This document shows, piece by piece, positions 2,945-62,863 of a stretch of DNA of 64,000 nucleotides. The stretch lies in the NCBI GenBank assembly GCA_017609645.1, contig JAFCDQ010000002.1, positions 145,470-209,469 of the forward strand, given 5' to 3'. Position 1 is the stretch's first letter; every line of letters begins with the position of its first letter. The position numbers and the translations under genes were made by a program. The notes under the pieces were generated by a model. That model saw only the letters and a list, made by a program, of their open reading frames with translations, had not been told where the DNA came from and searched no databases. Source of the DNA: Candidatus Woesearchaeota archaeon. Lineage in GTDB: Archaea > Nanobdellota > Nanobdellia > Woesearchaeales > ARS49.

Positions 2945-2959
2945 AAGTTCAGAATAAGA

Positions 2960-39400: not shown

Positions 39401-39577
39401 TTAAACCTCATTTTATTTATATAGCAAAGCGAGAATAGGGGCTTTTTATGCTTTATGAATTGGTGTTTTAGATAATAAATTTATCACTAAAACATTATTA
39501 AAAACATATGGCAAAGTATAAATACAAGAAAAGAAAGTTTAAAAAAACAAACAAAAATCACAAAAACAGGGGGAATC

Positions 39578-40429: not shown

Positions 40430-40503
40430 AAAAATGAAAATTCAAAAAATCAATTAAAATAGTTTTGAATTTTCAATGTGTCAAATCGGAGATTTGAAAC
40501 CAA

Positions 40504-41229
40504 ATGGAAGAAAGCAATTTTGAACTTTATGATGTTCTGCCAGAGAAATTATGGTGGATAAACATAAGAAATGACATGATTAAAAAACTTCTAAGAAAAT
40601 ACTTAAACAAAAAAGGAAGAATACTAGACCTAGGCTGCGGAACAGGATTTAATTTTTCATCAATAAACAAATTCGGCAAATGCTACGGCCTAGACATCTC
40701 GAAAAGCGCACTAAAACAAGCAAAAAAATTCAATTACAAAAAATTGTATGAAGGAAATGCACTAAAAACACCCTTCAAAGACAATGTTTTTGATGCAGTA
40801 TTATGCATGGATTTAGTCGAACATCTAGAAGAAGATGTTGAACTCTTAAAAGAAGTCAAAAGAATACTAAAACCAAACGGCATCTGCATGTTTACCGTGC
40901 CTGCATACAAATTTCTCTGGAGCAAAGATGATGAACTAGCACATCATATAAGAAGATACACAAAACCACAAATCAGAAAAAAAATCAAAAAAGTAGGATA
41001 TAAAATATTAAAACTAAGCTATAGATATTTCTTTATATTTTTACCAACAATAATGCTTTTCACATATCAAAAATTAAGAAAAAAAGCAAAAAACAGCTTA
41101 GATTACGGCCCAAAAAAAGGAATAGCAAACACAATACTTAAAAAAATAGGTAAAATTGAGAATTATTTCCTGACAAAAATCAACTTTCCATTTGGAGTTG
41201 GAATAATAGGAGTAATAAAAAAAAGATAA
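40504..41229 (+). CDS. class I SAM-dependent methyltransferase
   Basis: LDLGCGTG, DLVEH, HHIRRYT. Confidence 0.9.
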   Translation: MEESNFELYDVLPEKLWWINIRNDMIKKLLRKYLNKKGRILDLGCGTGFNFSSINKFGKCYGLDISKSALKQAKKFNYKKLYEGNALKTPFKDNVFDAVLCMDLVEHLEEDVELLKEVKRILKPNGICMFTVPAYKFLWSKDDELAHHIRRYTKPQIRKKIKKVGYKILKLSYRYFFIFLPTIMLFTYQKLRKKAKNSLDYGPKKGIANTILKKIGKIENYFLTKINFPFGVGIIGVIKKR

Positions 41230-41230
41230 A

Positions 41231-43129: not shown

Positions 43130-43132
43130 ATA

Positions 43133-45010: not shown

Positions 45011-45353
45011 AACAATTGCAATATTAATCATAACAGCATGCAGCTTATTAACAGCATTTGGCATGATATTCTGGAAAATAGGTGCTGATAAATTAGCATT
45101 TAACTGGAGTTTACTAACAAATTATCCACTTTGGCTGGGATTTATCTTTTATGCAATAGGAACTCTTCTCTTGATTTTATCATTAAAATACGGCAATTTA
45201 TCGCTAGTGCATCCATTTTTATCATTAGGATTAATATGGGCAGGCATTCTTGCATTTTTTTATTTAGGCGAAACCTTCACAACATTAAAAACAACAGGAA
45301 CTGCCTTAATCATATTAGGAACATTTCTCGTTTACAAAGGTGATAAAACATGA
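45000..45353 (+). CDS. EamA/SMR-type small membrane protein (ArnE/F-like)
   Basis: 4 TMs; LSLVHP; YLGE. Confidence 0.8.
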   Translation: MKNKTIAILIITACSLLTAFGMIFWKIGADKLAFNWSLLTNYPLWLGFIFYAIGTLLLILSLKYGNLSLVHPFLSLGLIWAGILAFFYLGETFTTLKTTGTALIILGTFLVYKGDKT

Positions 45354-45673
45354 ATTATCTGATTCCAATCATCATAATATTCTTCAACTGCATACTAGGA
45401 GCGTTAGGAGCCTTCTTGATGAAAAAAGGAGCTAACAAGAAATTAATCAACTGGCATAATTTTTTAGGAATTTCATTATATGTTATTGGCTCAATAATAT
45501 TTGTCATAACCTTAAAATTCGCTCCAGTAAGCATACTTTATCCAATAACTGGTTCAACATATATATGGAGTTTTATATTAGCTAAAATATATTTAAAAGA
45601 ACACATCACGAAGTATAAGATTTTAGGCCTGAGTATTATAATTTTAGGTATAATTTTCATCACAATCAGCTAA
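45350..45673 (+). CDS. EamA/SMR-type small membrane protein (ArnE/F-like partner)
   Basis: 4 TMs; VSILYP; YLKE; ATGA overlap. Confidence 0.8.
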   Translation: MNYLIPIIIIFFNCILGALGAFLMKKGANKKLINWHNFLGISLYVIGSIIFVITLKFAPVSILYPITGSTYIWSFILAKIYLKEHITKYKILGLSIIILGIIFITIS

Positions 45674-45713
45674 ATGGGAAACATTTTTAAGTCTCGGCAA
45701 GATTTGAAGAAAA

Positions 45714-48700: not shown

Positions 48701-48740
48701 GACATTAAACTTCAAAATAAAAATTGAGAAAATACTTTAA
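45714..48740 (+). CDS. aglB: oligosaccharyltransferase AglB (STT3) with C-terminal FKBP domain
   Basis: DIDPYY, DTD, TVAE, WWDYG; C-terminal YIGWLENGTIFDSS...GQLIKGFDEALIGM...PPEKAYG. Confidence 0.94.
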   Translation: MDDTPEEPKKESEKIEIDWKEKYLKAKKFSVKYGILLVLLLVIILQVMPNSEGKLPWGGLQMRMLTKELPSTDKWAKSNVEEFYKNEIKKVVAKEYPNLPDINKKEVLTDKWAEFQKNNKEEIQKQTEATKKELLKHFQYTYEGKQYLYLPDIDPYYYFRKTRNLIETGTPCDEVKDGIPWDNHMAAPFGQACGGNSHAYVLFGIYKINKLFDSKIDLLQSAAKFSPIIIFLSIILAYFIGLKLAGKTAGFFSALMIGILPSIFTRTPWGHADTDAYNTFFPLLALFTLFMALDAKKIKNKIIWAIITGLVFVAYSYFWSGWWFMFDVILGGLGVWIIVEIIKAYKKKNYKNLPKIIAPVASFFLTTLIIMSLLKGINYFFGFITNPLSRTAMKDAAKSTLWPNVFTTVAELNKGSWSKIIASMGGNLLFLIALIGVVLALWLKDEKGQRNLKLAAILTFWFIFSIYASFKGVRFMLLLAPAFAIAFGVGAGLITKKLSEFGQNNLGISKKIGAIILILLFGVMIATSGIAKKSYKSSVNDIPIVNDAWYNSLNYIKENSQKDAIINSWWDYGHHFKYFADRAVTFDGASQNTPMAHWIGRVLVTEEEDEAIGILRMLDCGSNKAFEIIDEQFNDAPKSVSILYKIFKLDKEEAKQVLEDEGVDAEEVTKYTHCEAPENFFITSGDMLGKAGVWAHFGLWDFMKADMWMNMRKLSKLDFEKKVMEKYQLTEKEAETYYNKLQSVTDEKEANNWISPWPGFPTRPASCSREENELSCGSGLKIDLNKNEASVETAQGKGIPHSLIYFDANKEMVEIKQEKSNMDLSVILIPKSNLNYNAILLSKELARSMFTRLYFLEGHGLKHFEKVYSDRELTQGDLYVWKVDWQGQQNNLLSIMKPKTEVKKGNKIAINYIGWLENGTIFDSSIIDWKEKDITTDANFDAYETKPLTLPAGTGQLIKGFDEALIGMKPGEEKTVNIPPEKAYGTDPDAHFLGNKTLNFKIKIEKIL

Positions 48741-48749
48741 TCATGAAAC

Positions 48750-49892
48750 ATGAAAATCTGTTTTATAAATCCAACAATATTAATTAAAAGGCCTATTTCT
48801 GAAATAATTAATACACTAGAAGAAAAAGAAGGTATAGACGAAATAGGACTGCTTTGCCCAACAAAAATAGGCAAAAAAATAGACAAATCATTATATCATA
48901 CTGAATTATTAAAAAAAGTAAAAATATATACTTATCCAACATTTCAACTACCCTTCGTAAAATCAGAATGGCCAATGCCGCTGCCATCATTTTTCTTCAA
49001 AACATTCAAAATATTCAAAAAATATGATATCATTCATATGTGGGTTTATTTTTATTTAAGCAGTTTCTGGATAACATTTACAAAATTATTCTTTCCAAAG
49101 AAAAAATTGATATTGACTATGGACACTGTACCAGGAGAATCATTCAAGACAGGGAAACTAATGGATGCCTGCTTTAGACTATATCACAAATTATTCGGCT
49201 GGTTTATTTTTGGAGTGCCAAAAAAAATAACATTATACGGCAAGTCATTAATTCCTTTTGCAAAAAAAGCAGGAATAAAAGAAAAAAAGATTGAAGTTAT
49301 TCCCACAGGAATTAATAATGAGAAATTTGACGGGGAATATATCAATTTAAGAAATGAATTCCACATTAAAGACGATGAAAAAATGATACTATTCATCGGA
49401 TTAATGCTAAAAAGAAAAGGAATAGATATAATATTAAAAACATTAAACAAACTAAAAGAAGAAAAATTCAAAATGATCTTTGTAGGAGGCGGGCCTGAAA
49501 AAAAAGAATTTGAAAACCTGGCTCAAAAACTTGGCTTGGGAGAAAAAGTAATATTTACAGGTGTCAGAAAAGATGTAAAAGACTTATGCAGAACAGCAGA
49601 TATCTTTTTCCTGCCTTCACGAGGAGAAGGTTTGCCTGGAGTTGTAATGGAAGCAATGAGCTGCAGTCTTCCCCTATTAAGCTCAAAAATACCCTGCACA
49701 ACCGATCTTGTAAAAGACACAGAGAATGGATATTTATGTGAAATCGAAGATATTGACTGTTATTCTCAAAAATTAAAAGAACTTCTTCAAATCAAAGAAT
49801 TAAGAGAAAAAATGGGTCTAAAATCCAAAGAATTAATAAAGAACTTCTCATGGGACAAAAGCATTAAGCGCTTTGAGGAAATATATAAATGA
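48750..49892 (+). CDS. GT4 glycosyltransferase
   Basis: RKG, PSRGEGLPGVVMEA (EX7E). Confidence 0.92.
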   Translation: MKICFINPTILIKRPISEIINTLEEKEGIDEIGLLCPTKIGKKIDKSLYHTELLKKVKIYTYPTFQLPFVKSEWPMPLPSFFFKTFKIFKKYDIIHMWVYFYLSSFWITFTKLFFPKKKLILTMDTVPGESFKTGKLMDACFRLYHKLFGWFIFGVPKKITLYGKSLIPFAKKAGIKEKKIEVIPTGINNEKFDGEYINLRNEFHIKDDEKMILFIGLMLKRKGIDIILKTLNKLKEEKFKMIFVGGGPEKKEFENLAQKLGLGEKVIFTGVRKDVKDLCRTADIFFLPSRGEGLPGVVMEAMSCSLPLLSSKIPCTTDLVKDTENGYLCEIEDIDCYSQKLKELLQIKELREKMGLKSKELIKNFSWDKSIKRFEEIYK

Positions 49893-50977
49893 AAATAGCT
49901 CACTTAATTACGGGCTTAGGAATGGGGGGAGCAGAAAGAATGCTTCTAAAGACCCTTCCAAGACTTAAAAACGAAAACTTCATAATTAGTTTAACAAGCA
50001 ATGATGCTTTTGGTAAAAGGATAGAAGAAGCAGGAATAAAAGTATATTATCTAGGTTTAAAAAAACTCAACCTACTATCTGCCATACTTAGATTCAGAAA
50101 AATACTAAAAAAAGAAAAACCAAACTTACTAAACTGTTATTTAATACACTCAAATATCTTTGGCAGAATATTTGGCAAACTATTTAGCGTGAAAAAAATC
50201 ATCTGTTCTGTCAGAAACAAGCACATAAACAGGCGATTTCTCAACTTTCTTGACAGAAGAACATCTTTTTTAGTTGATTTATATACTCCAAATTCTTATG
50301 TATTGGTGCCTTTTTTAACAGAACATCAAAAAATCAAAGAAAAAAAAATCAAAGTTATTGAAAATGGAATAGAATTAGAGAAATTTGATTTTGATATAGA
50401 TAAAGAAAAAAAGAAAAAAGAATTAGGAATAGAAAAAGAATTTGTAGTCAGCTGTATCGCAAAATTAGAAAAACAAAAAGGGTATCTAACTCTGATAAAA
50501 GCAATAAAAGAACTGAGTAATCCAGATTTTTTATTTTTGTTCATAGGAGACGGCAAAGAGAGAAAAGAATTAGAAGAACTGAGTGAAAAATTAGGTGTTA
50601 AAGATAAAATAAGATTTCTTGGCTGGAGAAGTGACACAAAGGAATTGCTTAGGATAACAGATTTATTTATTCTGCCAAGCTTTCATGAAGGAATGAGCAA
50701 CTCGCTTCTAGAAGCAATGATTTCAAAAGTCTGCTGTCTTGTCTCAGATATAGACGAGAATAAAGAATTAATAAAAAACGAAGAAAACGGACTAACATTT
50801 ATCACAGGCGACCATAAAGATTTAGCTGAAAAAATTTCATATTTACACAAAAATGAAAAATTAAGAAAAAAATATGCAGAAAAAGCTGAAGAAACAGTAA
50901 AGAAAAGATTTGATATAAACAAAACTGTGGAAAAATACACAGAAGTTATGGAAAATGTGTGGAATTCTAGGATTTAA
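49889..50977 (+). CDS. GT4 glycosyltransferase
   Basis: GGAE, QKG, PSFHEGMSNSLLEA. Confidence 0.92.
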   Translation: MKIAHLITGLGMGGAERMLLKTLPRLKNENFIISLTSNDAFGKRIEEAGIKVYYLGLKKLNLLSAILRFRKILKKEKPNLLNCYLIHSNIFGRIFGKLFSVKKIICSVRNKHINRRFLNFLDRRTSFLVDLYTPNSYVLVPFLTEHQKIKEKKIKVIENGIELEKFDFDIDKEKKKKELGIEKEFVVSCIAKLEKQKGYLTLIKAIKELSNPDFLFLFIGDGKERKELEELSEKLGVKDKIRFLGWRSDTKELLRITDLFILPSFHEGMSNSLLEAMISKVCCLVSDIDENKELIKNEENGLTFITGDHKDLAEKISYLHKNEKLRKKYAEKAEETVKKRFDINKTVEKYTEVMENVWNSRI

Positions 50978-50978
50978 T
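50955..50978 (+). pseudogene. 5' stub of an asnB gene (MCGILGFN)
   Basis: ATGTGTGGAATTCTAGGATTTAAT overlaps the GT4 stop; matches the AsnB starts MCGICGFN and MCGIIGFN; frame stops 9 codons later. Confidence 0.75.
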
Positions 50979-51021
50979 CGTATTTTATTTTTGAAAATCC
51001 TTTAATAATGCGCTATGCAAA

Positions 51022-52524
51022 TTATTTTAGCATTTTTTGTTTCATTATTTTTTTTACATTCTCGGTTTTGATAAAAATTTTCTTCATTTTTTCATAAAGT
51101 TTAATATCAAAATTAAATTTGTAAAAATTCAACGCCATTCTTAATTTAAACAAATTCTTAAAAGAAATGCCAAGAAAGTATGCTAAAAAACCTCTTGGTT
51201 TAATTTGAGAATAGGTATAGTATTTATATACATTTTTTAATTCATTTCTATTTGAAATCCAAGGCAAAATTCTGATATCTATAAAGCCGGTTTCATTCAA
51301 AAATTGAATCCAAGATTGGGTATCTTGCGGCTCTTTAAATCCTAGTTGTTTAGCCATCGCATACATCTCAGCTCCAGGATAAGGCCTATACAATTGGGGG
51401 CCAATAACCCTCACATTCTTATACTGCTTTAAAATTTGTTTTATTAACTTTAAAGTTTCCTTCTGTTCTTTTATTTTTTCATTAGGCATCCCTATCATAA
51501 AAGAACAGGCAGCATTTATTTTGAATTTATGCAATCTTTCCAGAACTGGCAAAACATCTTCTTTCTTTATACCTTTATTTATTATTTTATCTAAAACATT
51601 TTGACTGCCTGATTCAATCCCCATTCTTACTTCTAAACATCCGCAATCTCTTAAAAGCACTAATAGATTATCATCAATATGATTTGGCGTAAGGTAATTT
51701 AATCTTGCATTTGCAATCCACAAAAAATTAAACTTTTCTTTTTGATACACTTCGCAAAATTTTTTTACTCGGTCTATATCTATAAAAAAATTTTCATCAA
51801 CAAAATCAACACACTCTAACTTAACTTTATTTAAAATATTTTTGATTTCTCTAGTGATGTTTTCTTCAGATATGCCTCTCCATTTTCTTTTATTTAACAA
51901 AGTATTAATGCAAAACGTACAAGAATAAGGGCAGCCTCTTCCTACATGAATAGGAAAAGTCTTGATAAATTTTTTCCCAACTTGAGTTAGATCATCATAA
52001 TTATTTAAGTTGACTAAGTCCCAATTAGAAGAAACTTCATTGATATCAATATATTCTCTTTGTGAATTTCTAATGATTTTGCCATTCTCATCTTTAAAAT
52101 AAATTCCCCTAATTTGCTCTATTTTTGAAGAATGGTCTGCGAGATATTTTGCTATTTCAAATAAGGTTTCCTCCCCTTCATCATAAGCGACAAAATCCAC
52201 ACAATCTTCTTTTAAGCACTGTTCAGCAAATAAAGTAGGGTGAATTCCCCCCCAAATAACAGGAATACCTTTCTTATGAACTATTTTTGATAATTCATAA
52301 GCACTTTTGATTTGGCTGGTCATTACTGTAAACCCTACTAAAAAACTTTTTTTCAGAATCTCATCAATATTTTTTGAGGCTTCATTAAGTTGTTCGTCAT
52401 AAATTTTAACATTAAAATTTTTTTTTGCTAAATAAGAAGCTATACATAATATGCCCATGAATAAGTGCGGTTTTTCAATATTCTGATCTGCCGGGACTAT
52501 CAAAGATATTTGTTTATTTTCCAT
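51022..52524 (-). CDS. B12-binding radical SAM protein
   Basis: WGGIHPT, RGCPYSCTFC, DENF, GIESGS, PYPG. Confidence 0.92.
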   Translation of the reverse strand: MENKQISLIVPADQNIEKPHLFMGILCIASYLAKKNFNVKIYDEQLNEASKNIDEILKKSFLVGFTVMTSQIKSAYELSKIVHKKGIPVIWGGIHPTLFAEQCLKEDCVDFVAYDEGEETLFEIAKYLADHSSKIEQIRGIYFKDENGKIIRNSQREYIDINEVSSNWDLVNLNNYDDLTQVGKKFIKTFPIHVGRGCPYSCTFCINTLLNKRKWRGISEENITREIKNILNKVKLECVDFVDENFFIDIDRVKKFCEVYQKEKFNFLWIANARLNYLTPNHIDDNLLVLLRDCGCLEVRMGIESGSQNVLDKIINKGIKKEDVLPVLERLHKFKINAACSFMIGMPNEKIKEQKETLKLIKQILKQYKNVRVIGPQLYRPYPGAEMYAMAKQLGFKEPQDTQSWIQFLNETGFIDIRILPWISNRNELKNVYKYYTYSQIKPRGFLAYFLGISFKNLFKLRMALNFYKFNFDIKLYEKMKKIFIKTENVKKIMKQKMLK

Positions 52525-52713: not shown

Positions 52714-53436
52714 ATGAAAAAAAAATATAAAGGTCTAGAAATTTGTGCGGTCAAAGGTCTGCACGAAAAAGTATTAAAAACAATTTTAAAAAGAAATATA
52801 AAAAAAGAATCCAAAATTCTTGTTCTTGGTTCGGGAACAGGAAGTTTTGACAAAAGATTGGCTGACTCTGGATTTAATAACATAATCTCTTCAGACATTA
52901 ATCAAGAGAACTATACATATTCAAATGAAAACATAAAATTTATGCCTTTAGATTTAAATTCTGATTTCTCTGCAAAAATAAATCAAGATTTTGATTTAAT
53001 AATTGCTACAGAACTAATAGAACATTTAAGTTCTCCAAATAAGTTTATTAAAGAATGCAAAAATCTATTGAATAAAAAAGGCGTTCTTATTATTTCAACT
53101 CCAAATTTACATAATTTACAATCAAGAATTAATTTTTTATTATTTGGTTACCCTAGTTATTTTATAACAAAACCTGAAAAATACGGCCATATTTCCCCCA
53201 TTTTTGATAATATTTTCTTTTATATTTTAGAAAAACATAATCTAAAATTAGAAAAAAGAATTCCAAGTTCAAATTATTTTAAAAATTTTGAATTTTATAC
53301 AAAAAAAAGCTATTTTTATTTTTTAACACAACTTTTCTTAAATATCTTCTTTTTTCCATTAATGTTATTTAATAAAAAATTATTAAAAGGCACCAATGCC
53401 ATATATTTAATCAGTCATGCGGATTATAAAAAATGA
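52714..53436 (+). CDS. class I SAM-dependent methyltransferase
   Basis: LGSGTG, DLN, ELIEHL, STPN. Confidence 0.88.
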   Translation: MKKKYKGLEICAVKGLHEKVLKTILKRNIKKESKILVLGSGTGSFDKRLADSGFNNIISSDINQENYTYSNENIKFMPLDLNSDFSAKINQDFDLIIATELIEHLSSPNKFIKECKNLLNKKGVLIISTPNLHNLQSRINFLLFGYPSYFITKPEKYGHISPIFDNIFFYILEKHNLKLEKRIPSSNYFKNFEFYTKKSYFYFLTQLFLNIFFFPLMLFNKKLLKGTNAIYLISHADYKK

Positions 53437-54215
53437 AAGGACACCAACATTTAAAATATGAAGAATTAATCATGCTCACAACACAGGGTGTCCACGAGAA
53501 AGTTTTTGAAATCATTCGCAATAAAAAAATTCAAAAACAAGCAGCAATTTTAGATTTAGGCGCAGGCACCGGAAGCTTTGATAAAAGGCTGATTGATAAT
53601 GGATTTAAAGAAATAACGGCAGTTGATATAGTTGCAAATAATTATAAGTACAAAAATAAATTTGTAAAATTTCTCTGTTTAGACCTAAATGCCAACTTCT
53701 CTGCAAAAATAAACAAAAAATTTGACTTAATAATCGCGACAGATGTTATCGAACATTTAGCTTCTCCCCACAACTTCATTAAAGAGTGTAAAAATCTATT
53801 AAAAAAAGAAGGCACATTAATTATAAATACACCAAATTTACATAATTTACAATCAAGAATTAATTTTTTAATTTGGGGCTATCCAAGTTATTTTATAGTA
53901 AAACCACAGAAAGCAGGGATCCACCACCACTCAGAAGAATGGAAAGAAGAATTTTCACACATATCTCCAGTATTTGACAATATACTTATGTGTTTATTAA
54001 ATGAAAATAATTTAGAACTAGAAAAAAGAATGCCTTGTTCAAGTTATACTAAACACTTTAAATTTTACACAAAAAAAAGTTATTTTTATTTTTTGATAAT
54101 TAGTTTACTTAGAGTCCTGCTTGTTCCAATGATGATGTTTAATAGAAAATTATTAAAAGGGACAGAGGTAATATATGTAATTCAAAATAAAGAAAATTCA
54201 AGATGTGCGGAATAA
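53433..54215 (+). CDS. class I SAM-dependent methyltransferase, tandem paralog of 52714..53436
   Basis: DLGAGTG, DVIEHL; TPNLHNLQSRINFL shared with the neighbour. Confidence 0.88.
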   Translation: MKGHQHLKYEELIMLTTQGVHEKVFEIIRNKKIQKQAAILDLGAGTGSFDKRLIDNGFKEITAVDIVANNYKYKNKFVKFLCLDLNANFSAKINKKFDLIIATDVIEHLASPHNFIKECKNLLKKEGTLIINTPNLHNLQSRINFLIWGYPSYFIVKPQKAGIHHHSEEWKEEFSHISPVFDNILMCLLNENNLELEKRMPCSSYTKHFKFYTKKSYFYFLIISLLRVLLVPMMMFNRKLLKGTEVIYVIQNKENSRCAE

Positions 54216-56023
54216 TTGGATTCAATTGGAATGATTTGCTACGAGTAAAAAAACTTGCTGCTTTAGTAAATCACAGAGGTCCTGATCAAGAGGGAGCATA
54301 TACGGATAAAAATGTTTCTCTAGGCCATAAAAGATTAAGCATTATAGATTTATCTGAAAAAGGAAAGCAACCCATGAGCAGCAGTGACCAAACTATATGG
54401 ATAACTTATAATGGAGAAATATTCAATTTTCAAGAAATAAAAAAAGAACTAATTTCCAAAGGATATAAATTCAAATCGAAGACAGATACAGAAGTTATAA
54501 TTGAGGGATATAAAGAGTATGGAACAAAAATATTAGATAAATTAAACGGACAATTTGCTTTTTGTATATACGATAAAAAAAAAGAACAATTATTTCTTGC
54601 GAGAGACCGCATTGGAATAAATCCTCTTTATTATTATTTTGATGGAAATAAATTTATTTTTGGATCAGAATTAAAAATAATTATGGGTGCAGGCATTAAA
54701 AAAGAAATTAATAGATTTGCACTTAATTATTATTTAATGTACGGCCACACCCCAAGAAAACAGAGTATTCTAGAAAATACATATAAACTAGAACCGGGTC
54801 ATTTTATGATTTTTGATTTAAAAAATAAAAAAATAAAAAAATACACGAAATATTGGGGCATACATTTAACAGATGAAATTAAAGATGAAAAACTTGCAAA
54901 AAAAATAATTCTGGAAAAACTAGATGAATCAGTAAAAAAAAGATTAATTGCAGATGTTCCTGTAGGCGCATTCTTATCAGGAGGACTTGACAGTAGCGCA
55001 GTTGTTGCATTAATGAGCAAATACACAAAAAATCTCAATACTTTCTCTATAAAATTTGATTATCAAGATTTTGATGAATCAAAATATGCAGAAATTGTAT
55101 CAAAAAAATTTGAAACAAAACATCATGTAATCAAATTTTCAGCAAAAGATGTTAAAGAATTGCTTCCAAAACTAGTTTACCATTATGACGAACCATTCGG
55201 TGATCCTTCAATGATACCAACATATCTAGTATCAAAAGTAGCAAAACAGCATGTTACTGTATCATTATCAGGAGATGGGGGAGATGAGTTATTTGGAGGG
55301 TATAATTCTTACAAACATTTCAGACTGTTAAACTTCCAGAAATATTATCCTGCCTTCATTAACAAAATACTATATAAATTATTTAAACCAATCAAAAATC
55401 ATTTTTTTGTAAAGCCTCGGGCATTTTGGGAATTAGGAACGCTACCAAAAAAACATAAATTTGCACGACTAATGAGCTATTTAAGTATGGATGAATTTAA
55501 ACAAATCACTGGAGAAGACCCAATAAAATATTATGAGGCATATGGAGGAGCTTATTTTAGAAAAAATTATCTAGACAATGCACAAACAATAGATATTCAT
55601 ACTTACTTACCAGATAATAATCAAACAAAAGTTGACAGATCTTCTATGGCAAATAGCCTAGAAACGAGACCTCCTATTTTAGATCATGAACTAATAGAAA
55701 AAGCCACAAAATTTCATCATAGTCTGCGTTTAAAAGGGCGAAATGGCAAATATATATTCAAGAAAGCTCTTGAGGGCATTTTACCAAAAAAAGTTTTATA
55801 TAGAAAAAAACAAGGATTTGGAGTTCCATTAAAATATTATTTCCGGAACGAACTGAAAGATATGGTTTATGAGTATGTGATTAATTTTACTGAGCATAAC
55901 CTATTTGACAGCAGCTTTATCAAAAAGATAATAGCTAAAAAGAAATGGGGAAGAGATTACTCTAGAATTATCTGGTCGATTTTGATTTTTAATTTATGGT
56001 GGCAGAAATGGATGAAAAATTAG
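54203..56023 (+). CDS. asnB: AsnB-family glutamine amidotransferase (copy 2)
   Basis: MCGI, HRGPD, LSGGLDSS, GDGGDE, KVDRSSM. Confidence 0.93.
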   Translation: MCGIIGFNWNDLLRVKKLAALVNHRGPDQEGAYTDKNVSLGHKRLSIIDLSEKGKQPMSSSDQTIWITYNGEIFNFQEIKKELISKGYKFKSKTDTEVIIEGYKEYGTKILDKLNGQFAFCIYDKKKEQLFLARDRIGINPLYYYFDGNKFIFGSELKIIMGAGIKKEINRFALNYYLMYGHTPRKQSILENTYKLEPGHFMIFDLKNKKIKKYTKYWGIHLTDEIKDEKLAKKIILEKLDESVKKRLIADVPVGAFLSGGLDSSAVVALMSKYTKNLNTFSIKFDYQDFDESKYAEIVSKKFETKHHVIKFSAKDVKELLPKLVYHYDEPFGDPSMIPTYLVSKVAKQHVTVSLSGDGGDELFGGYNSYKHFRLLNFQKYYPAFINKILYKLFKPIKNHFFVKPRAFWELGTLPKKHKFARLMSYLSMDEFKQITGEDPIKYYEAYGGAYFRKNYLDNAQTIDIHTYLPDNNQTKVDRSSMANSLETRPPILDHELIEKATKFHHSLRLKGRNGKYIFKKALEGILPKKVLYRKKQGFGVPLKYYFRNELKDMVYEYVINFTEHNLFDSSFIKKIIAKKKWGRDYSRIIWSILIFNLWWQKWMKN

Positions 56024-56844
56024 AATTATATGAAGATATATATAAGAAAAAATTCAGTTTTGGAAAAAATTGGCAGTTTTTTTTAAAAAAGCTGGATAAT
56101 AAAAAAATAGAATTAGCTAAAAAATCTTTAACTGATTTCACAAAATTAAAAAATTTCAAAGATAAAACTTTTATTGATATTGGCTGTGGAAGTGGACTTT
56201 TTTCTTTATGCGCTTGTCTGCTAAATGCAGAAAAAGTTATTAGCATTGATGTAGATGAAAACAGTGTTTCTTGTGCAAAATATCTAAGAAACAAATTTAA
56301 AATAAATCCTGAAATCTGGGAGATAAAAACAGGCTCTGCCCTGGATTCAGACTTTTTAAAAAATCAAGGAGAATTTGATATAGTCTATTCTTGGGGCGTT
56401 TTACACCACACAGGATATATGTGGAAAGCCTTAGAGAATGTAATTCCTCTCATAGCAAAAGATGGTTCATTATACCTAGCGATTTATAATGAGTTTAAAG
56501 GTTTTCCAAACTCTAAAACCTGGGCAAAAATAAAAAAATTCTATTCAAACCATGGAAAGATAATTAGAAAAATAATTGAAATGGGCTATATTTCCTATTA
56601 TATATTAGGCTTATTAGCGCATGGAAAAAATCCTATTAAATATATCAAAAATTATGGGCAAAAAGGTGCAAGGGGAATGAGTTTTTATAGAGATGCTGTA
56701 GATTGGCTAGGAGGTTATCCTTATGAATTTGCTTCTACCAAAGAAATAATTGATTTTTATGGGGGGAAAAATTTTAAATTGATAACTCTTAAAAAGGCAA
56801 AGAGGGAAGGTTGTAATCAATACTTATTCCAAAAAAATGATTAA
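55996..56844 (+). CDS. class I SAM-dependent methyltransferase
   Basis: FSFGKNW, DIGCGSG, SWGVLHHTG, DWLGGYPYE; start may be 56008. Confidence 0.9.
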   Translation: MVAEMDEKLELYEDIYKKKFSFGKNWQFFLKKLDNKKIELAKKSLTDFTKLKNFKDKTFIDIGCGSGLFSLCACLLNAEKVISIDVDENSVSCAKYLRNKFKINPEIWEIKTGSALDSDFLKNQGEFDIVYSWGVLHHTGYMWKALENVIPLIAKDGSLYLAIYNEFKGFPNSKTWAKIKKFYSNHGKIIRKIIEMGYISYYILGLLAHGKNPIKYIKNYGQKGARGMSFYRDAVDWLGGYPYEFASTKEIIDFYGGKNFKLITLKKAKREGCNQYLFQKND

Positions 56845-57970
56845 AAAAAAAGAAAAAATCAAAGTTATGCTGCTCATAGATAATCATAATCTAGGAGGCG
56901 CGCAAAAATTTACATTAAATCTTTGCAAATTTTTAAACAAAAATGAATTTGAAGTGCACGTAGTATTTTGGAAAGAAGGCTTTTTCACAAAAGATTTTGA
57001 AAAAATTCAAAATATTTTTTTGCACCCTCTAAATATCGCACCTGCAAGTAATGCTGGAATTTTTGAAAAAATGAAGATTTTTCTAAAACATATGGCTGAG
57101 ATTAAAAAGAAAATAAAAAACATCAGACCAAACATACTTCAAACAACATTGCCAACTTCGGATTTTTACGGGATGCTGATGAAAATTTTAAATCCTAAAA
57201 TAAAATTTATTTCTAGAAAAGCAGATACTCCTTTGGTATGGAAAAAAAAATTCTTTTTGCATCTTTTTCTTAGGTTTTATTTCAAATTCCACTCTTTTTT
57301 CGTAAATAAATTTGTTTGCATATCTTTCGCTGTCAAAGACTATATGAACAAATATGAATTTATTTCACGAAAAAAACTTAAAGTAATTCATAATGGCGTA
57401 AACCTTGCTGATTACCAAGAGAAAAATAAAAACTATAATTTAATAAATTTTGTTTATCTTGGGAGATTAGATATTAAACATAAACGACTTGATTTGATCT
57501 TAAAAGCCGCACAAATTCTTATGAAAAAATACAGAAAAAAATTTAATTTGTTTATTATTGGCGATGGAAAAGATCGAGAATTAATTGAAAAAATTTGCAG
57601 AAAGAATCCTGAACATATGAAATTTTTAGGCAAAAGAAAAAATATTAATGCCTCATTAGAAAAAAAACACATTCTTTTGTCCCCTTCCAAATGGGAAGCA
57701 TTTGGAATCGCAAATATTGAAGCAATGGCTTGCGGGCTGCCAGTAATTGCAACGAGAGTTGGAGGGCTCTCTGAAATAATTGTTGACAAAGAAACTGGCT
57801 TTTTGATAGAAAAAAATAATGCTGCATATTTGGCTGAAAAAATGGAATATTTTCTTTTAAATAAAGAAATGATTGAAAAAATGGGTAAAAAAGCAAGGGA
57901 AAGAGTTATTGAAAAATTCGACATCAGACAACAAGTTAAAGAATATGAAAATGTATATTTAAACGTTTAA
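56837..57970 (+). CDS. GT4 glycosyltransferase
   Basis: GGAQ, HNGV, PSKWEAFGIANIEA. Confidence 0.92.
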   Translation: MIKKKEKIKVMLLIDNHNLGGAQKFTLNLCKFLNKNEFEVHVVFWKEGFFTKDFEKIQNIFLHPLNIAPASNAGIFEKMKIFLKHMAEIKKKIKNIRPNILQTTLPTSDFYGMLMKILNPKIKFISRKADTPLVWKKKFFLHLFLRFYFKFHSFFVNKFVCISFAVKDYMNKYEFISRKKLKVIHNGVNLADYQEKNKNYNLINFVYLGRLDIKHKRLDLILKAAQILMKKYRKKFNLFIIGDGKDRELIEKICRKNPEHMKFLGKRKNINASLEKKHILLSPSKWEAFGIANIEAMACGLPVIATRVGGLSEIIVDKETGFLIEKNNAAYLAEKMEYFLLNKEMIEKMGKKARERVIEKFDIRQQVKEYENVYLNV

Positions 57971-57974
57971 AAAA

Positions 57975-58823
57975 ATGAAAGAAAAAATAAAAGAATTATT
58001 AAATATCAAAGAGGAAGAAATAAAAAAATTTAAAATTTCTCATAAAGGATACGAAGGAGACTGCTATATTCTTTTTACTCAAAATAACTCATATTTCATA
58101 AAAAAATATTATTTAAAAGATGAGGTTAATTATGTAGAAGGATTAACTGCAAAAAAACTTTTTGATGCGGAGCTGAAGTCAATAAATTTACTCAGCACAA
58201 TTAAAAATGAGGGAATGATAACACCTGAACTAGTAACATATGATTCAAAAAACCTGATATTGGTACAGAAATATCTTAAAGGAGAAAAATTTTATAATCA
58301 TTTAATCAAAAATTGCAATAAAATTTATTTCAATGCGAATTTAAAAAATATCTTTTTTTATTTCGGCCAATTCTTAGCGGAATATCATAATAAATTTTTT
58401 TATAAAGAATTTAATGGGGAACCTTTAACCAGACTTCATGGCGACTTATCGTCTCATAATATGACATTCATGAGAACCTCTCAAATATTCTTATTTGATC
58501 CTTCTGTAATTCAAGGCAGCATTTATATAGATCTGGCAAAGGCATTTCTTATTTTTTATCCTCTAAACTTTTTTTTAAATTTTATAATTAGAAAAAGCAA
58601 AATGAATTTACTCAAAAACTTTTTCTTTGAAGGATATATGAAAAATTCTAAATTCAGATTAGATAAAAATATCTTAAAGAAATATATTATTTCAAAGCTA
58701 GATGATGAAAAAAGATATTCCACTCAAACTCATATTTATAAATTAAAGAAAATTCTCATAAACTCTTATATAAATCATCTGATTAAAAAAATTGAAGAAA
58801 ATAAAATTAATATTTTTGAATAA
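57975..58823 (+). CDS. APH/choline-kinase-like phosphotransferase
   Basis: FIKK, E, HGDLSSHN, LFDP, DLAK. Confidence 0.75.
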   Translation: MKEKIKELLNIKEEEIKKFKISHKGYEGDCYILFTQNNSYFIKKYYLKDEVNYVEGLTAKKLFDAELKSINLLSTIKNEGMITPELVTYDSKNLILVQKYLKGEKFYNHLIKNCNKIYFNANLKNIFFYFGQFLAEYHNKFFYKEFNGEPLTRLHGDLSSHNMTFMRTSQIFLFDPSVIQGSIYIDLAKAFLIFYPLNFFLNFIIRKSKMNLLKNFFFEGYMKNSKFRLDKNILKKYIISKLDDEKRYSTQTHIYKLKKILINSYINHLIKKIEENKINIFE

Positions 58824-58840
58824 GGAACTGCTGGGAAAAT

Positions 58841-60193
58841 ATGGACAAGATCAAATATCTGAATAAAGAATTTGTCTCGGAAGAGACAATTAGGAATTTA
58901 AATAGACTTAAAAATAATGAAAATATAGAAAATATATACTGTTTGATTGAATCCCACATTAAAAAATTTTCAGAAACTCCCTCAAGCATATGTATAAAAA
59001 CAAACAGTAAAAAAATATATCCAGATTATTCAAGTTCTCTCAACTGCGGTATGGGGTTGCTGCAGACAAATCTTAATATTTGTGATTTGAGAAATAAAAT
59101 AGTGAAAATATTTCAAGAGATAAACAACAAAACAACATTGAGTATTATTAAAAGGTACCTGGGAAGAAAAGAAGTCAATAAAAAAGAATTAGAAGAGATA
59201 TTCTATAAAGGTATTGAAGCTATGCCTTCAAGATACAACAAAATAAACAATGCATTCGGCAATGAAGGGAATGTAGTGAAAGATAAAGAAGTTAAAAAAG
59301 ATGAGATAATAAAAGCTATTCCTAACTTTTTATATAGAGGCGCATTAAGAGAATTAGGAAAAAATGCCGGCGGCAATCACTTTATTGAAATGCAAATCAT
59401 TGATGAGATATTTGACCATAAAATAAAAGCTAAAAAAGGAGATGTTTATTTCATGATTCATCTTGGAACAGGATATTTAGGCGATAATTTTAATAATGTA
59501 TACTTAAAGAGAAAAAATAATTCTCTAAAGACAACCTTTGCTATTGGTCCAAAATTCTTCAACATACAAAAACTATTCTTTTTGATAAAAACATTTGGAA
59601 TATATTATATAATAAGAAATTTTAAGAAATTATTCAAAAAGAGTAAATTAAAAGGGCTTGAAAACAACACAAAAAGAGCAAAATACTACATCAATGGAAG
59701 CCATGCAATTATGAATTTTGGATATGCCTGGAGATACGCAACTTATTCAAAAATAATTGATGTATTGAAGAAAGTAAGTGAAAAAGAATTAAAATATAAA
59801 TTATTGCTTGATAGATCACATAATTCAATTTTTCAAGAAAAAGAAAACTATTATTATCTAAGAAACTGCTGCAAACTTAAAAAAACAGGAGATCTTTTCA
59901 TTCTGCCAGGAAATTATTGCAATAATTCATATTTATGCCAAACGCTTCCAAAATTAAAGAAAATAGGATTCAACATAGACCATGGATTAGGTATGCTTTT
60001 AAAGAAGGACAAAGAAAAAGATCTTACTTTTATGTATAAATGCAAAAGAACTAGAATCATTAGCGGAAAAATAAAATACAAAAAAATCAAACATGAAAAA
60101 TCACAAAAAATAAATGAGGTCATCAAAAAACTAGAAAAAGAAGGATATTTCAAAATACTTCTTACATTGAAGCCAATCGCGAGTCTGAAATAA
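58841..60193 (+). CDS. divergent RtcB-family protein
   Basis: LNCGM, GGNHFIEMQ, MIHLGT, SHN, LPG, DHGLG, LKP in RtcB order. Confidence 0.8.
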   Translation: MDKIKYLNKEFVSEETIRNLNRLKNNENIENIYCLIESHIKKFSETPSSICIKTNSKKIYPDYSSSLNCGMGLLQTNLNICDLRNKIVKIFQEINNKTTLSIIKRYLGRKEVNKKELEEIFYKGIEAMPSRYNKINNAFGNEGNVVKDKEVKKDEIIKAIPNFLYRGALRELGKNAGGNHFIEMQIIDEIFDHKIKAKKGDVYFMIHLGTGYLGDNFNNVYLKRKNNSLKTTFAIGPKFFNIQKLFFLIKTFGIYYIIRNFKKLFKKSKLKGLENNTKRAKYYINGSHAIMNFGYAWRYATYSKIIDVLKKVSEKELKYKLLLDRSHNSIFQEKENYYYLRNCCKLKKTGDLFILPGNYCNNSYLCQTLPKLKKIGFNIDHGLGMLLKKDKEKDLTFMYKCKRTRIISGKIKYKKIKHEKSQKINEVIKKLEKEGYFKILLTLKPIASLK

Positions 60194-60194
60194 A

Positions 60195-61115
60195 ATGAAG
60201 GAATGGAAAAATTTATTGGGGAACTCAGTTGACTCAAAAATAGTTTCGATAAGATTATTTAAAAAATGCCCCTGCTCTTGCATATATCTCGCTAAAGATG
60301 AAAAAAATAGAGAATATATTATAAAGAAATACAAAACAAGAGATTCAGACATTAAGCAAGAATTTGAGAATCAAAAAAAAGCATATGAAATATTCCAAAA
60401 TTATTCAAATAATGTTGCAGTCCCTACACCAATAACTTTCTCAAAGAAACACAACATTCTCGCTATGGAATATATCAAAGGGATAACATTAACAGAATAT
60501 TTGAGAAATAATAACCTTTATTTGAAAGGAAGAAAATTAAAGAAAATATATTATTTAATTGGCGGGGCATTACAGCATTTGCATAAAAATGCTGTCTGGA
60601 AAACAAAAGAGTTTATTGATGGAAAAATGCATCTTACAATAAATAGAGTAAAGCTTCAGCCAATTTATAAGGAATATCTTAAGTTAATTAAAAAAAATAA
60701 CGAAAAATCTCAATTCCAAAGAATACATGGTAATTTCAAAACAGAAAATATATTGATTAGTAACTCGAAGATATATTTTATAGACTTTGCTTATGATTAT
60801 AAAGGTTCAATATATTATGATCTGGCCAAATTAATTGAATCCTCTTTCACAGCAGGGTTTAGAAATATTTATTTTCCAGCATATAATTTCCTAAATTTAA
60901 ATAATTTTAAAAGGGCTCTGATTAAAGGATATTTCAAAGAAGAAAGAGTTAATGCAAAAATATTTAATTATTATCAGGTGCTGTTTAAGATTTATGATTT
61001 AAGCTGCTGCAAATCAAGAAAAATATCCTTCATTTTTCTCAAAAATATATATAATTTTAGAATAAAAAAATTGATAAGAAAGAGTTATACTTTAGCAAAA
61101 ATGGAGATAGAATGA
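60195..61115 (+). CDS. APH/Kdo-kinase-like protein (catalytic Asp replaced by Asn)
   Basis: IIKK, QEF, VPTP, MEYI.G, HGNFKTEN, IDF, YDLA. Confidence 0.75.
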   Translation: MKEWKNLLGNSVDSKIVSIRLFKKCPCSCIYLAKDEKNREYIIKKYKTRDSDIKQEFENQKKAYEIFQNYSNNVAVPTPITFSKKHNILAMEYIKGITLTEYLRNNNLYLKGRKLKKIYYLIGGALQHLHKNAVWKTKEFIDGKMHLTINRVKLQPIYKEYLKLIKKNNEKSQFQRIHGNFKTENILISNSKIYFIDFAYDYKGSIYYDLAKLIESSFTAGFRNIYFPAYNFLNLNNFKRALIKGYFKEERVNAKIFNYYQVLFKIYDLSCCKSRKISFIFLKNIYNFRIKKLIRKSYTLAKMEIE

Positions 61116-62863
61116 AAAAAATTAAATATAAATATCCTTACATTAATGGAATAAGAATCTCTGGTAAATTAAATGATTTGCCTATAGAATTGCATAATTA
61201 TCTAACTATTGCTAACTTCAACTATTTTTATCTTCTCGACTATTTCGTAAAAAGAACAAACAAACAATTCAAAAAAAAATGCGGATTAGATTTGATAATC
61301 TTCTTTCTTGATTATCTTGACACTCATATCGATGACGACATTGAATTAGTTGCAGAAGGCAATTTTGCAGAAGAATTCAAAAATTGTGTAAAATTAGTCT
61401 GTGAAACAAAAAAACATAATCTAACACTCAAAAAAATCAAACCAGACTGCGGTTTTTTTGCAAAAATAAAAACAAACCTATTTCACAACCCATTTATGCT
61501 AAGAAACTTAATCAAATTAAGACTCACAATAAGATACTTTCTTGGCTTAATAAGAAGAATTATGGGAAAAACCAACAAAAATGATGTGGAAGTGATTTTC
61601 TTATCAAATATGAGGTTCTCAAGGAAAAATGAACATAACAATGCGCTATTTGGATCTTTAATAAAAAAACTAGATGAAACGAAAATAAAAAATAAAGTCA
61701 TAAGATATGATCCTCCCAGATATTACTTTGAGTTGAAGCGGTTTATAAAAGAATTCCTGCTGCAAAAAGAGAGCTATCTAGGAGATTATTATAGAGTTTC
61801 TCATTTTTTTAAAATAAAAAAGAATATGAAACTTTTCAAAAGAAAATGGAATCAAATAAAAAACTATGCTGATTTAAAAAATATCTTCAACTATAAAGGA
61901 TACAATTATTACAGCATAATAAAGCCAAGATTAGAACTTATATTCAACTCCATAAGCTATTTTGCAATCGACAATAAACTCATAACAAATGAAATAATAA
62001 AAAAAGAAAAATTCAAAGCAATAATTATAGATAGTGAAAGCAGCCTCTATGGGAAAGGATTCATGCTTAACCTAAAGGATAAAGAATCAAAAGTTATGGC
62101 ATTATCACATGAACTGATTTATCCAGGATGTGATCATATTTGCAGAAAAAATGATTTAATTAAAAACAAAAAAAATATTTATTGGAGACCCTTGCCTGAT
62201 ATAAAATGTGTATGGGGAGAATTTGCAAAAAATATCTTATTAGAAGACTGTAATTATAAAGATGAATTAATCAAAATAACAGGAAATCCCAAATTTGATT
62301 ATTTGTTCAATAAAAAATATGACAAAAAAGAAATTTTAGAGAAGTACAAGCTAAAAGAAAATAAAAAGAAAATATTAATTGCCTCAAACAGAAGCTGGCA
62401 ACTTGCGCCTTTTATTTCTGAACTTTTATCAAAAACAAATGAATATGAAGTAATACTAAAACTACACCCAAAAGAAGACCTTAATTCAATTAAAAAATAC
62501 TTTGAAAGAATTCCTGTTAAAATAATAGAAGGAATCGCAGACATAAATGAACTGCTAAATGTATCTGACATTGCAGTAACAGAAGCATCAACAGTAGGTT
62601 TTGAAGCAATGCTGCTTGGAAAAATTGTATTTATCTTAACAAGAGATAAAGCGGAACCAAGAGGAATGCCTTATATGCAGTATAAAGCAGCAATTAAAAT
62701 AAACTCCGCAAAAAATCTTTTAAATGAATTAAACACGTTAAAAAACAAGGAACACGAGAAAAAACTAATTGAAAATATGAATTATTTTACAAATCACATA
62801 AATTATGGAAATGATGGAAAAGCATCAGAAAGAGTGGTGGCGGAAATAAAGAAATTCCTCTAA
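61112..62863 (+). CDS. GT-B protein, CDP-glycerol glycerophosphotransferase (TagF)/capsule-transferase-like
   Basis: VWGE, TGNPKFD, KLHPKE, STVGFEAMLLGK, DGKASERV. Confidence 0.72.
   Translation: MKKIKYKYPYINGIRISGKLNDLPIELHNYLTIANFNYFYLLDYFVKRTNKQFKKKCGLDLIIFFLDYLDTHIDDDIELVAEGNFAEEFKNCVKLVCETKKHNLTLKKIKPDCGFFAKIKTNLFHNPFMLRNLIKLRLTIRYFLGLIRRIMGKTNKNDVEVIFLSNMRFSRKNEHNNALFGSLIKKLDETKIKNKVIRYDPPRYYFELKRFIKEFLLQKESYLGDYYRVSHFFKIKKNMKLFKRKWNQIKNYADLKNIFNYKGYNYYSIIKPRLELIFNSISYFAIDNKLITNEIIKKEKFKAIIIDSESSLYGKGFMLNLKDKESKVMALSHELIYPGCDHICRKNDLIKNKKNIYWRPLPDIKCVWGEFAKNILLEDCNYKDELIKITGNPKFDYLFNKKYDKKEILEKYKLKENKKKILIASNRSWQLAPFISELLSKTNEYEVILKLHPKEDLNSIKKYFERIPVKIIEGIADINELLNVSDIAVTEASTVGFEAMLLGKIVFILTRDKAEPRGMPYMQYKAAIKINSAKNLLNELNTLKNKEHEKKLIENMNYFTNHINYGNDGKASERVVAEIKKFL

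Follow-up and report, generated by a model that had tools for sequence, protein, structure and literature searches.

Within a 64,000-nucleotide window (G000:C4:145470-209469) of the genome of a Candidatus Woesearchaeota archaeon (1.13 Mb, ~28% GC, 4 contigs), we identified a divergent member of the RtcB family, hereinafter RtcBL, which represents a widespread and, as far as we could find, undescribed clade of RtcB homologs probably recruited to surface-glycan biosynthesis. The protein has the RtcB fold, coexists with a separate canonical paralog, and shares with its clade a distinctive pattern of retained and lost active-site residues and an association with glycan loci of archaea and bacteria; very probably, it is not the tRNA/RNA ligase of the cell but an enzyme of a glycan pathway. 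As to the reaction involved, we give an even chance to RtcBL being a GDP-X synthase, with X being a sugar or an alcohol. In this scheme, a neighboring kinase (K1 in the window) would produce a small phosphomonoester, X-P; RtcBL would form a covalent His381-GMP adduct, as RtcB does; GMP would then pass from His381 to the phosphate of X-P, yielding the phosphoanhydride GDP-X, a counterpart of RNA(3')pp(5')G; and GDP-X would leave the enzyme to serve as the substrate of a transferase encoded in the locus, namely, a family 4 glycosyltransferase (GT4), a TagF-like transferase, or a CDP-alcohol-type phosphotransferase. Within such a pathway of kinase, nucleotidyltransferase and transferase, RtcBL would take the place of an enzyme with the NTP_transferase or cytidylyltransferase fold. 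In proposing this, we infer the activity itself, guanine as the nucleotide, a small phosphomonoester as the acceptor, and release of the product.

RtcBL passes the cut-off of the Pfam model PF01139 (108.5 bits; cut-off 27) and falls short of the NCBIfam cut-offs for RtcB equivalogs (75.8 versus 407 bits for NF007153 and 55.7 versus 271.8 bits for TIGR03073), and neither Pfam nor NCBIfam yielded a match to the NTP_transferase, CTP_transf_like, or IspD folds. The AlphaFold2 model has a predicted local distance difference test score of 92.9 and a predicted template modeling (TM) score of 0.93, and all 16 matches to this model obtained with Foldseek in the PDB at E ≤ 0.001 are RtcB/RTCB chains, with TM scores of 0.65 to 0.68 and identity of 14 to 17% to solved structures among the matches listed. 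The same genome encodes a canonical RtcB elsewhere (C1:307486-308796; signature DCNHHSRHNHRR), which scores 563 bits, compared with 108 for RtcBL. The earlier note on this DNA had proposed that an RtcB paralog activates a kinase-made phosphate; the canonical copy, as well as the clade and the residue pattern described below, agree with that proposal, whereas the details it gave for the TagF-like protein and for nucleotidyltransferases did not stand in full.

Alignment with P. horikoshii RtcB, the numbering of which is used hereinafter unless a window protein is named, showed that RtcBL retains the presumed GMP-accepting histidine, H404 (H381, in the motif DHGLGM), along with C98 (C69), H234 (H207), and the pairs N202/H203 (N179/H180) and H329/N330 (H327/N328), and that its E183, S363, and K450 match the guanine contacts Glu206, Ser385, and Lys480. 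The nucleophile and the Mn1 ligands C69, H207, and H327 are therefore all present. By contrast, D95 is replaced by S66, leaving the Mn2 site incomplete with two of its three ligands, SR is replaced by TG within HLGTGYLG, so that Arg238 becomes G211, and R408 is replaced by M385, R190 by G167, and Q194 by E171. The motifs had been read correctly throughout in the earlier note, both those of the metal ligands and the nucleophile region, described as kept, and the Asp of DxNCG and Arg residues of HxGSR and HGAGR, described as lost. The guanine, phosphate, and metal ligands of human RTCB are named in PMC8668186. According to PMC8051266, Mn1 is bound by Cys98, His234, and His329, and Mn2, which touches the γ-phosphate of GTP, by Asp95, Cys98, and His203; Asn202 contacts the 5'-OH nucleophile, and Arg238, Arg190, and Gln194 grip the 5'-OH strand, Arg238 being the main contact. 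Mutation of the Arg238 counterpart in the E. coli enzyme slows sealing 200-fold but RNAppG formation just 3-fold (PMC8051266).

Close relatives of RtcBL are few, namely, P0002 (48% identity) and P0003 (47%), the latter being the protein encoded in locus L004 of a Woesearchaeote metagenome-assembled genome. A word-based homolog search retrieved two close relatives and one canonical RtcB, and a scan of genome contigs, one true relative (that in L004), three canonical RtcBs, and one odd Patescibacteria protein. In two samples of 401 genomes each, from the phylum and from the order, a non-canonical copy was found only in the genome under study, in that of L004 (G203), and in G195, the remaining matches in both samples being partial canonical hits of at most 67 bits; these tallies take in four unpublished genomes (G243, G244, G322, and G360), counted solely among those without RtcBL. 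The wider family is larger: a profile of three close sequences, compared with 1.84 billion representatives, matched 644 proteins at E ≤ 1e-3, a number that falls to 204 at E ≤ 1e-10 and to 32 at E ≤ 1e-30. In a FastTree phylogeny of 141 rows (132 of 152 proteins, the 20 outside 380 to 560 aa having been dropped, plus 9 proteins from loci), the trio to which RtcBL belongs falls into a clade of 79 rows that is set apart from the canonical rows with an SH-like support of 100, a value to be read cautiously.

Comparison of the 79 clade rows with 24 canonical rows revealed which parts of the active site are maintained. His203, His234, and His329 are present in every clade row; Cys98 is kept in 73 and replaced by Asp in 5, whereas 76 rows have the nucleophile His404 and 77 have Asn202; among the guanine contacts, Glu206 and Ser385 are each found in 78 rows and Lys480 in 61, with Arg in another 9. 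Conversely, Asp95, which is present in 24 of the 24 canonical rows, occurs in none of the clade rows (Ser in 32, Gly in 18, Ala in 11), Arg238 likewise in none (Gly in 47), and Arg190 in only 11; Gln194 is replaced, and Arg is not among the six commonest residues at the position of Arg408. All the residues kept or lost in the clade are present in 15 to 24 of the 24 canonical rows. The N-terminal loop also differs, with the canonical PDxHxGYGFPIGG being replaced by PDxHx[KR]xExPSS. Conservation peculiar to the family is seen at R224, K244, and H248 and in the ExPSS loop. Because of these counts and of the roles assigned to the residues in PMC8051266, the clade appears to have lost what polynucleotide sealing needs and to have kept what is needed for placing GMP on histidine and transferring it to a phosphate; the pattern fits an enzyme in which GMP transfer to a phosphate was retained and polynucleotide sealing was lost.

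Several variants of the active site were observed. A subclade with Asp in place of Cys98 and the signature ADNHHPGHNH comprises the proteins of loci L044, L041, L042, and L045 as well as P0042, P0049, P0067, P0085, and P0104. Locus L113 encodes a tandem RtcBL pair (422-1873 and 1812-3275), of which the second copy (signature ACNHHGGHNPQE) has Pro at the position of the nucleophile His, which suggests an inactive partner subunit. An RtcB-like protein of Moraniibacteriota, encoded on a 3.4-kb contig (L005, 3-1412), keeps DPNCG, has the nucleophile motif altered to PHGTGK, and lacks GNHF.

To assess the genomic context of the clade, we compared 83 loci (80 from a metagenome scan plus the window, L004, and L040) with 86 RtcB-like open reading frames (ORFs), sorted solely by active-site signature into 18 non-canonical RtcBL loci and 65 others, the latter containing canonical, intein-containing, truncated, or 'G..SR' forms, as the scan pattern matched canonical RtcB too. 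Homologs of five families (GT4, CDP-OH_P_transf, APH-like kinase, Wzx, and a P-loop protein) were sought with phmmer, excluding seed proteins from the same locus. Of the 18 non-canonical loci, 15 had at least one of these families within 5 kb (108.6 kb of flanking sequence), compared with 1 of the 65 others, which served as the control (412.5 kb); the contrast is weakened by the choice of families after inspection of RtcBL neighbors, by the coverage of 18 contexts among at least 200 family representatives, and by synteny within two groups (L049, L052, L048, L099, and L053; L044, L041, L042, and L045), such that the 15 loci are not independent. The distinct clade with members in glycan loci, one of the expectations of the earlier note, was recovered both in the phylogeny and in the census and Pfam annotations. 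A full-text search, covering literature outside subscription journals and supplements, returned no paper tying RtcB or RtcB-like proteins to polysaccharide loci, CDP-alcohol transferases, or glycosyltransferase neighborhoods.

The same observations bear on the possibility that RtcBL acts on nucleic acid ends, in RNA repair, end capping, or anti-phage defence, and merely resides in variable glycan loci. Such a role would be in keeping with the score of RtcBL as a PF01139 member and with weak matches of the downstream kinase-like protein K2 to the generic defence kinases PD-T4-6 and mad6 (29 to 30 bits; PADLOC), and RtcB paralogs of Myxococcus are said to have capping activity. We nonetheless regard it as very unlikely: the contacts of the 5'-OH strand are lost in the clade, no RtcA, archease, PrfH, or Ro-type neighbor was found among the genes annotated, the RtcBL gene forms part of a translationally packed glycan operon of 12 genes, and the glycan association recurs in loci with GC contents from 28 to 72%, whereas 64 of the 65 other RtcB loci show none. 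A defence role in particular was rejected, given that in PADLOC neither RtcBL nor K1 nor the TagF-like protein had a match and that K2 had only generic kinase matches of at most 30 bits.

The neighborhoods of the relatives share more than the census families. In L004, the gene order is K1-like, methyltransferase, RtcBL, K2-like, GT4, GT4, and WaaY-like kinase, with DegT, PglD, a 2-epimerase, PIG-L, WbqC, a NeuB-epimerase fusion, and CTP_transf_3 encoded alongside; thus, the arrangement K1-(methyltransferase)-RtcBL-K2 is common to the two Woesearchaeotes, and that of L004 lies beside a NeuB/CMP-synthetase/LegG-type pathway. In high-GC loci, five RtcBL genes are directly preceded by one for a protein of ~330 aa, a bacterial partner denoted X-partner in Table 1, which carries the Walker A motif GxSGVGKST and belongs to no Pfam family. 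Its atlas neighbors are hypothetical proteins, mostly from Actinomycetota (among the few members with a phylum recorded), with a weak lead to ScmC, and a PDB sequence search with it found nothing; it is possibly an HprK-like P-loop kinase. In the high-GC loci as in the archaea, RtcBL is flanked by a pair of kinase-like genes (X-partner and APH in the former, K1 and K2 in the latter). Pfam annotation placed a GT4 next to RtcBL in L043, L049, and L048; L049, L052, and L048 also encode Wzy_C, and the last two an APH kinase. In L057, an AAA_18/33 P-loop kinase-like protein and an FkbM methyltransferase are present, and in L042, a Wzx gene overlaps the RtcBL start. The genome G195, that of a third archaeon, contains a paralog of a different clade (NxNCG...HD...HGSGR; 276 bits to PF01139), in addition to its own canonical RtcB. 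This paralog is encoded between a dTMP-kinase-like gene and UDP-glucose dehydrogenase (L040, on G195:C5; 8569-12037) in a flippase/capsule locus that also includes NTP_transferase, Wzx, Capsule_synth, and a gene of the Phosphodiest family.

Relevant to the fate of the guanylylated product is the pairing with CDP-alcohol phosphotransferases, enzymes that require a nucleoside diphosphate (NDP)-alcohol donor. By Pfam, CDP-OH_P_transf genes lie at most 90 bp downstream of RtcBL in L113, L043 (6902-7678), and L044, and L045 has one by phmmer only; the order Wzx, RtcBL, CDP-alcohol phosphotransferase is seen in the Asp-for-Cys98 subclade, with the phosphotransferase fused to a β-helix domain in L044. 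Annotation of L113 genes revealed no conventional nucleotidyltransferase, nor did that of 9 of the 10 genes flanking RtcBL on the 11-kb contig of L043, the tenth being GT4-like by phmmer only. Release of GDP-X is favored over direct sealing because of this tight pairing in four loci, which would be better explained by RtcBL supplying the donor, and because of the lack of a conventional nucleotidyltransferase among the annotated genes of L043 and L113. Direct sealing would amount to all three RtcB steps being performed on glycans: a kinase would phosphorylate a sugar of a lipid-linked or polymeric glycan, RtcBL would guanylylate the phosphate to yield glycan-ppG, and the hydroxyl group of another sugar, an alcohol, or a polymer would then attack, such that the phosphodiester forms and GMP is released. 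We consider such a glycan phosphodiester ligase unlikely, although the catalytic core is retained in the clade, including Asn202, the contact of the 5'-OH nucleophile in RtcB (PMC8051266), and the lipopolysaccharide-kinase-like neighbors (the WaaY-like kinase of L004 and the atlas neighbors of K1) phosphorylate sugars already built into a glycan. It would also be consistent with P0094, a protein of 996 aa in which a Wzx-like flippase at the N-terminus (matching that of L042 with E 1.8e-122) precedes a C-terminal RtcBL domain, since fusion to a flippase would place the enzyme at the membrane. The fusion may be genuine or a gene-calling read-through, given that the corresponding genes of L042 overlap by 4 bp in different frames. 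If correct, direct ligation would create phosphodiester bridges in archaeal and bacterial surface glycans without a soluble NDP-activated donor.

In the window, GDP-X synthesis would depend on the kinase encoded immediately upstream. K1 scores 22.7 bits against Fructosamin_kin in Pfam, borderline at the cut-off of 22.4, with a weak Bud32 match in NCBIfam, and its atlas neighbors belong to the APH, RIO1, and Kdo/WaaY clusters; PDB sequence searches with K1 found nothing. The alignment shows its catalytic loop, HGD..N, and the later Asp to be present, and orthologs of both K1 (246 bits) and K2 (102 bits) are encoded in L004. The K2 gene starts at or overlaps the RtcBL stop in both loci. In K2, the catalytic-loop Asp is replaced by Asn (HGNFKTEN), as it is in the L004 ortholog, with the Lys, Asn, and DFG-type Asp being retained, and the closest PDB sequence is a marginal match only (corramycin phosphotransferase, E 0.06). 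Judging from these residues, K2 could be a pseudokinase or a kinase-fold enzyme with an atypical activity. Prediction of an RtcBL-K2 complex scored 0.00 and gave no verdict, and it was counted neither for nor against an interaction.

Several findings weigh against GDP-X synthesis. Asp95, the Mn2 ligand that contacts the γ-phosphate of GTP according to PMC8051266, is gone from all 79 rows, which may mean that guanylylation with GTP is impaired, that another donor is used, or that the leaving group is handled differently. K2 lacks the catalytic Asp. No kinase was found on the parts of L113, L043, L044, and L042 examined, such that not every member of the clade is kinase-adjacent. In the window, the sole phosphotransferase-like consumer may be a CMP-nonulosonate transferase. 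Finally, the genome contains GlmS-like and PGM/PMM genes and one NTP_transferase, so that there is no obvious need for a kinase to make a hexosamine phosphate. The loss of Asp95, suggestive of a donor without a γ-phosphate, the replacement of the bridging Cys by Asp in 5 rows, the Pro of the second L113 copy, and the pseudokinase-like K2 would suit an RtcB scaffold engaged in a different nucleotidyl or phosphoryl transfer (GMP to polyprenyl phosphate or protein, or a GalT-like reaction in which an NDP-sugar and a sugar phosphate swap the nucleotide), or a catalytically dead binding subunit. Such alternatives seem improbable to us, as the nearly universal nucleophile, the three invariant metal-binding histidines, and the near-invariant guanine contacts point to an active GMP-handling enzyme in most members.

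The earlier note labeled the gene following K2 TagF-like, and the corresponding protein indeed matches Glyphos_transf (PF04464; cut-off 22.1), in its C-terminal half only. Models of nonulosonic-acid transferases score at least as well, with E-values better than that of the Pfam TagF model: 81.5 bits for NF046086 (BFO_1060; cut-off 200) and 76.5 bits for TIGR04396 (cut-off 125), both below the cut-off. BFO_1060 relatives, which carry a TagB-type domain, are described in PMC5420450 as T. forsythia transferases of pseudaminic/legionaminic acid derivatives. By profile comparison, the TagF-like protein could therefore be glycerophosphotransferase-like or a nonulosonic-acid transferase and, with a CMP-synthetase in the locus, need not, and probably does not, consume the product of RtcBL. 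That synthetase also qualifies the statement of the earlier note that no nucleotidyltransferase is visible in the cluster: this holds for the glycan genes examined in the window but not for the continuation of the locus (L003, the DNA directly downstream), where a CTP_transf_3+NeuB+SAF fusion, a CMP-nonulosonate synthetase/synthase, is encoded 3.4 kb past the window end. The one conventional NTP_transferase of the genome lies ~116 kb upstream.

L003 encodes, in addition to this fusion, a HisH-like/HisF-like pair, a hydrolysing 2-epimerase, a hexapeptide acetyltransferase, a DegT aminotransferase, and a 4,6-dehydratase, a gene set that constitutes a legionaminic-type nonulosonic-acid pathway; the host locus of RtcBL is an archaeal N-glycan/nonulosonic-acid locus. 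In C. jejuni and T. forsythia, legionaminic acid synthesis starts from GDP-GlcNAc, which is made by PtmE, a GTP-specific GlcN-1-P guanylyltransferase with its gene in the locus (PMC5378307). No PtmE-like gene was detected in the annotated parts of the two archaeal RtcBL loci, and, by analogy, RtcBL might fill the PtmE role there. There is a small chance that X-P is hexosamine 1-phosphate and the product GDP-GlcNAc for the adjacent legionaminic-type pathway. The relatives of the downstream enzymes are mixed in this regard: the closest solved relative of the 2-epimerase (241 bits) is a GDP/UDP-diNAcBac hydrolysing 2-epimerase that takes both GDP and UDP substrates, whereas the closest solved relatives of the dehydratase are UDP-GlcNAc enzymes.

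The GDP-X synthase proposal combines elements of several known systems. With canonical RtcB (P. horikoshii, E. coli, human RTCB), RtcBL shares the fold, the His nucleophile, the Cys/His metal ligands, Asn202, and the Glu/Ser/Lys guanine contacts documented for those enzymes, but it lacks Asp95, Arg238, Arg408, Arg190, and Gln194, has a different N-terminal loop, and has its genes in glycan loci instead of next to those for RNA repair. Papers of the Shuman laboratory reportedly describe the formation of DNA3'pp5'G by E. coli RtcB and the capping of a 5'-phosphate by Myxococcus RtcB3; the partial reaction would be the same, with ppG not carried on to sealing, except that end capping modifies a nucleic acid end, whereas RtcBL would act on a small sugar or alcohol phosphate and yield a biosynthetic donor. 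LicA-LicC-LicD, TagD-TagF, and IPCT-DIPPS are kinase/nucleotidyltransferase/phosphotransferase pathways for phospho-decorations. RtcBL loci follow the same logic, with an APH-type kinase and TagF-like or CDP-alcohol phosphotransferase neighbors, but the proposed activating enzyme would have an unrelated fold, form a covalent His-NMP intermediate, and probably use GTP rather than CTP. In the Leloir pathway, the kinase GalK makes sugar 1-phosphate, which GalT converts to an NDP-sugar via a covalent His-NMP intermediate; GalT, an enzyme of the HIT fold, draws its UMP from UDP-glucose rather than an NTP. The proposal for RtcBL thus resembles GalK-GalT in its logic of a kinase and a covalent His-NMP, with no homology between the enzymes. 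PtmE is similar in transferring GMP and in being encoded in a legionaminic-acid locus, a Leg-type gene set being present in both archaeal loci; unlike RtcBL, it has the NTP_transferase fold. A precedent for the kinase pair is offered by Cj1415-Cj1418 of C. jejuni, the O-methyl phosphoramidate module, in which Gln, ATP, and CTP are converted to CDP-phosphoramidate 3'-phosphate (PMC11800397). That system likewise combines two kinases with a single nucleotidyltransferase in a glycan locus that also encodes methyltransferases and proteins of the amidotransferase type, but differs in enzyme families, and we found no sign of a phosphoramidate or a 3'-phosphorylated cofactor in the RtcBL locus.

To our knowledge, nucleotide activation of sugars and alcohols always proceeds through one of a few nucleotidyltransferase folds. 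Were GDP-X to be formed via covalent His-GMP, it would represent an independent invention of the nucleotide-activation step and the first non-nucleic-acid function of the RtcB fold; the pathway logic is already known, and the activating fold and the covalent mechanism would be new. Such an activity would also account for glycan or teichoic-like loci that encode a CDP-alcohol phosphotransferase or kinase yet show no enzyme for the activation, and annotations as 'RtcB family protein' would have to be read differently, at least 200 clusters at 50% identity matching the profile at E ≤ 1e-10.

As stated in the earlier note, the genes for a kinase, the RtcB-like protein, a kinase-like protein, the TagF-like protein, and a flippase are tightly packed inside a glycan cluster, on which ORFs and Pfam annotation agree (Table 1). 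The run on the forward strand extends from 52714 past the window end with overlaps or with gaps of at most 71 bp throughout: 4 bp between GT4 and K1, 17 bp between K1 and RtcBL, 1 bp between RtcBL and K2, an overlap of 4 bp between K2 and the TagF-like gene, and 71 bp between the latter and Wzx.

Table 1. Genes of the RtcBL locus in the window and kinase-like partners in related loci (L, G, and P numbers denote the loci, genomes, and proteins compared)
Feature	Sequence	Position	Strand	Remarks
Rest of the glycan locus	Window	37122-52524		Pfam
Two paralogous methyltransferases, AsnB-like amidotransferase, third methyltransferase	Window	52714-56844	+	Pfam; start of the gene run
GT4 glycosyltransferase	Window	56837-57970	+	Glycos_transf_1, 133.8 bits (Pfam)
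K1, small-molecule kinase, APH/LPS (lipopolysaccharide)-kinase-like	Window	57975-58823	+	282 aa; HGD...N...D intact
RtcBL, divergent RtcB-fold protein	Window	58841-60193	+	450 aa; PF01139, E 6e-31
K2, protein-kinase-fold protein	Window	60195-61115	+	306 aa; APH 44.9 bits, Pkinase 33.1 bits, RIO1 match
K2 ortholog	L004	11359-12192		
TagF-like GT-B transferase	Window	61112-62863	+	583 aa; Glyphos_transf, 65.9 bits
Wzx-type flippase	Window, L003	62935 to beyond 64000, ending at L003 position 667	+	Polysacc_synt, 55.3 bits
X-partner	L049	4632-5615		
X-partner	L052	6067-7884		
X-partner	L099	3956-5026		
X-partner	L048	5632-6624		
X-partner	L053	430-1443		
X-partner, weaker relative	L058	2001-3116		
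X-partner, weaker relative	L047	849-1973		
X-partner, weaker relative	L046			

Upstream of the run, Pfam annotation of the glycan locus identified UDP-glucose dehydrogenase, an epimerase, a family 2 glycosyltransferase, a methyltransferase, an AsnB-like protein, a 625-aa protein without a family, an AglB/STT3-FKBP protein, two GT4s, and a B12-radical S-adenosylmethionine (SAM) enzyme. The oligosaccharyltransferase AglB/STT3 (45714-48740, +; 1008 aa) carries a C-terminal FKBP-type peptidyl-prolyl isomerase (residues 900-1004), an unusual fusion. B12-binding radical SAM enzymes are encoded on both sides of the locus (51022-52524 in the window and 8981-10441 in L003). Two proteins encoded inside it have no Pfam family at E ≤ 1e-3, namely, the 625-aa protein (window 43133-45010, +) and one of 407 aa (L003 1383-2606, +). 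The tandem paralogous methyltransferases at the start of the run (52714-53436 and 53433-54215) have similar hydrophobic C-terminal tails. Elsewhere in the window, a gene on the reverse strand (22771-29142) encodes a protein of 2123 aa with three Laminin_G_3 (concanavalin A-like) stretches and a GH123 N-terminal domain, which is probably a giant surface protein.

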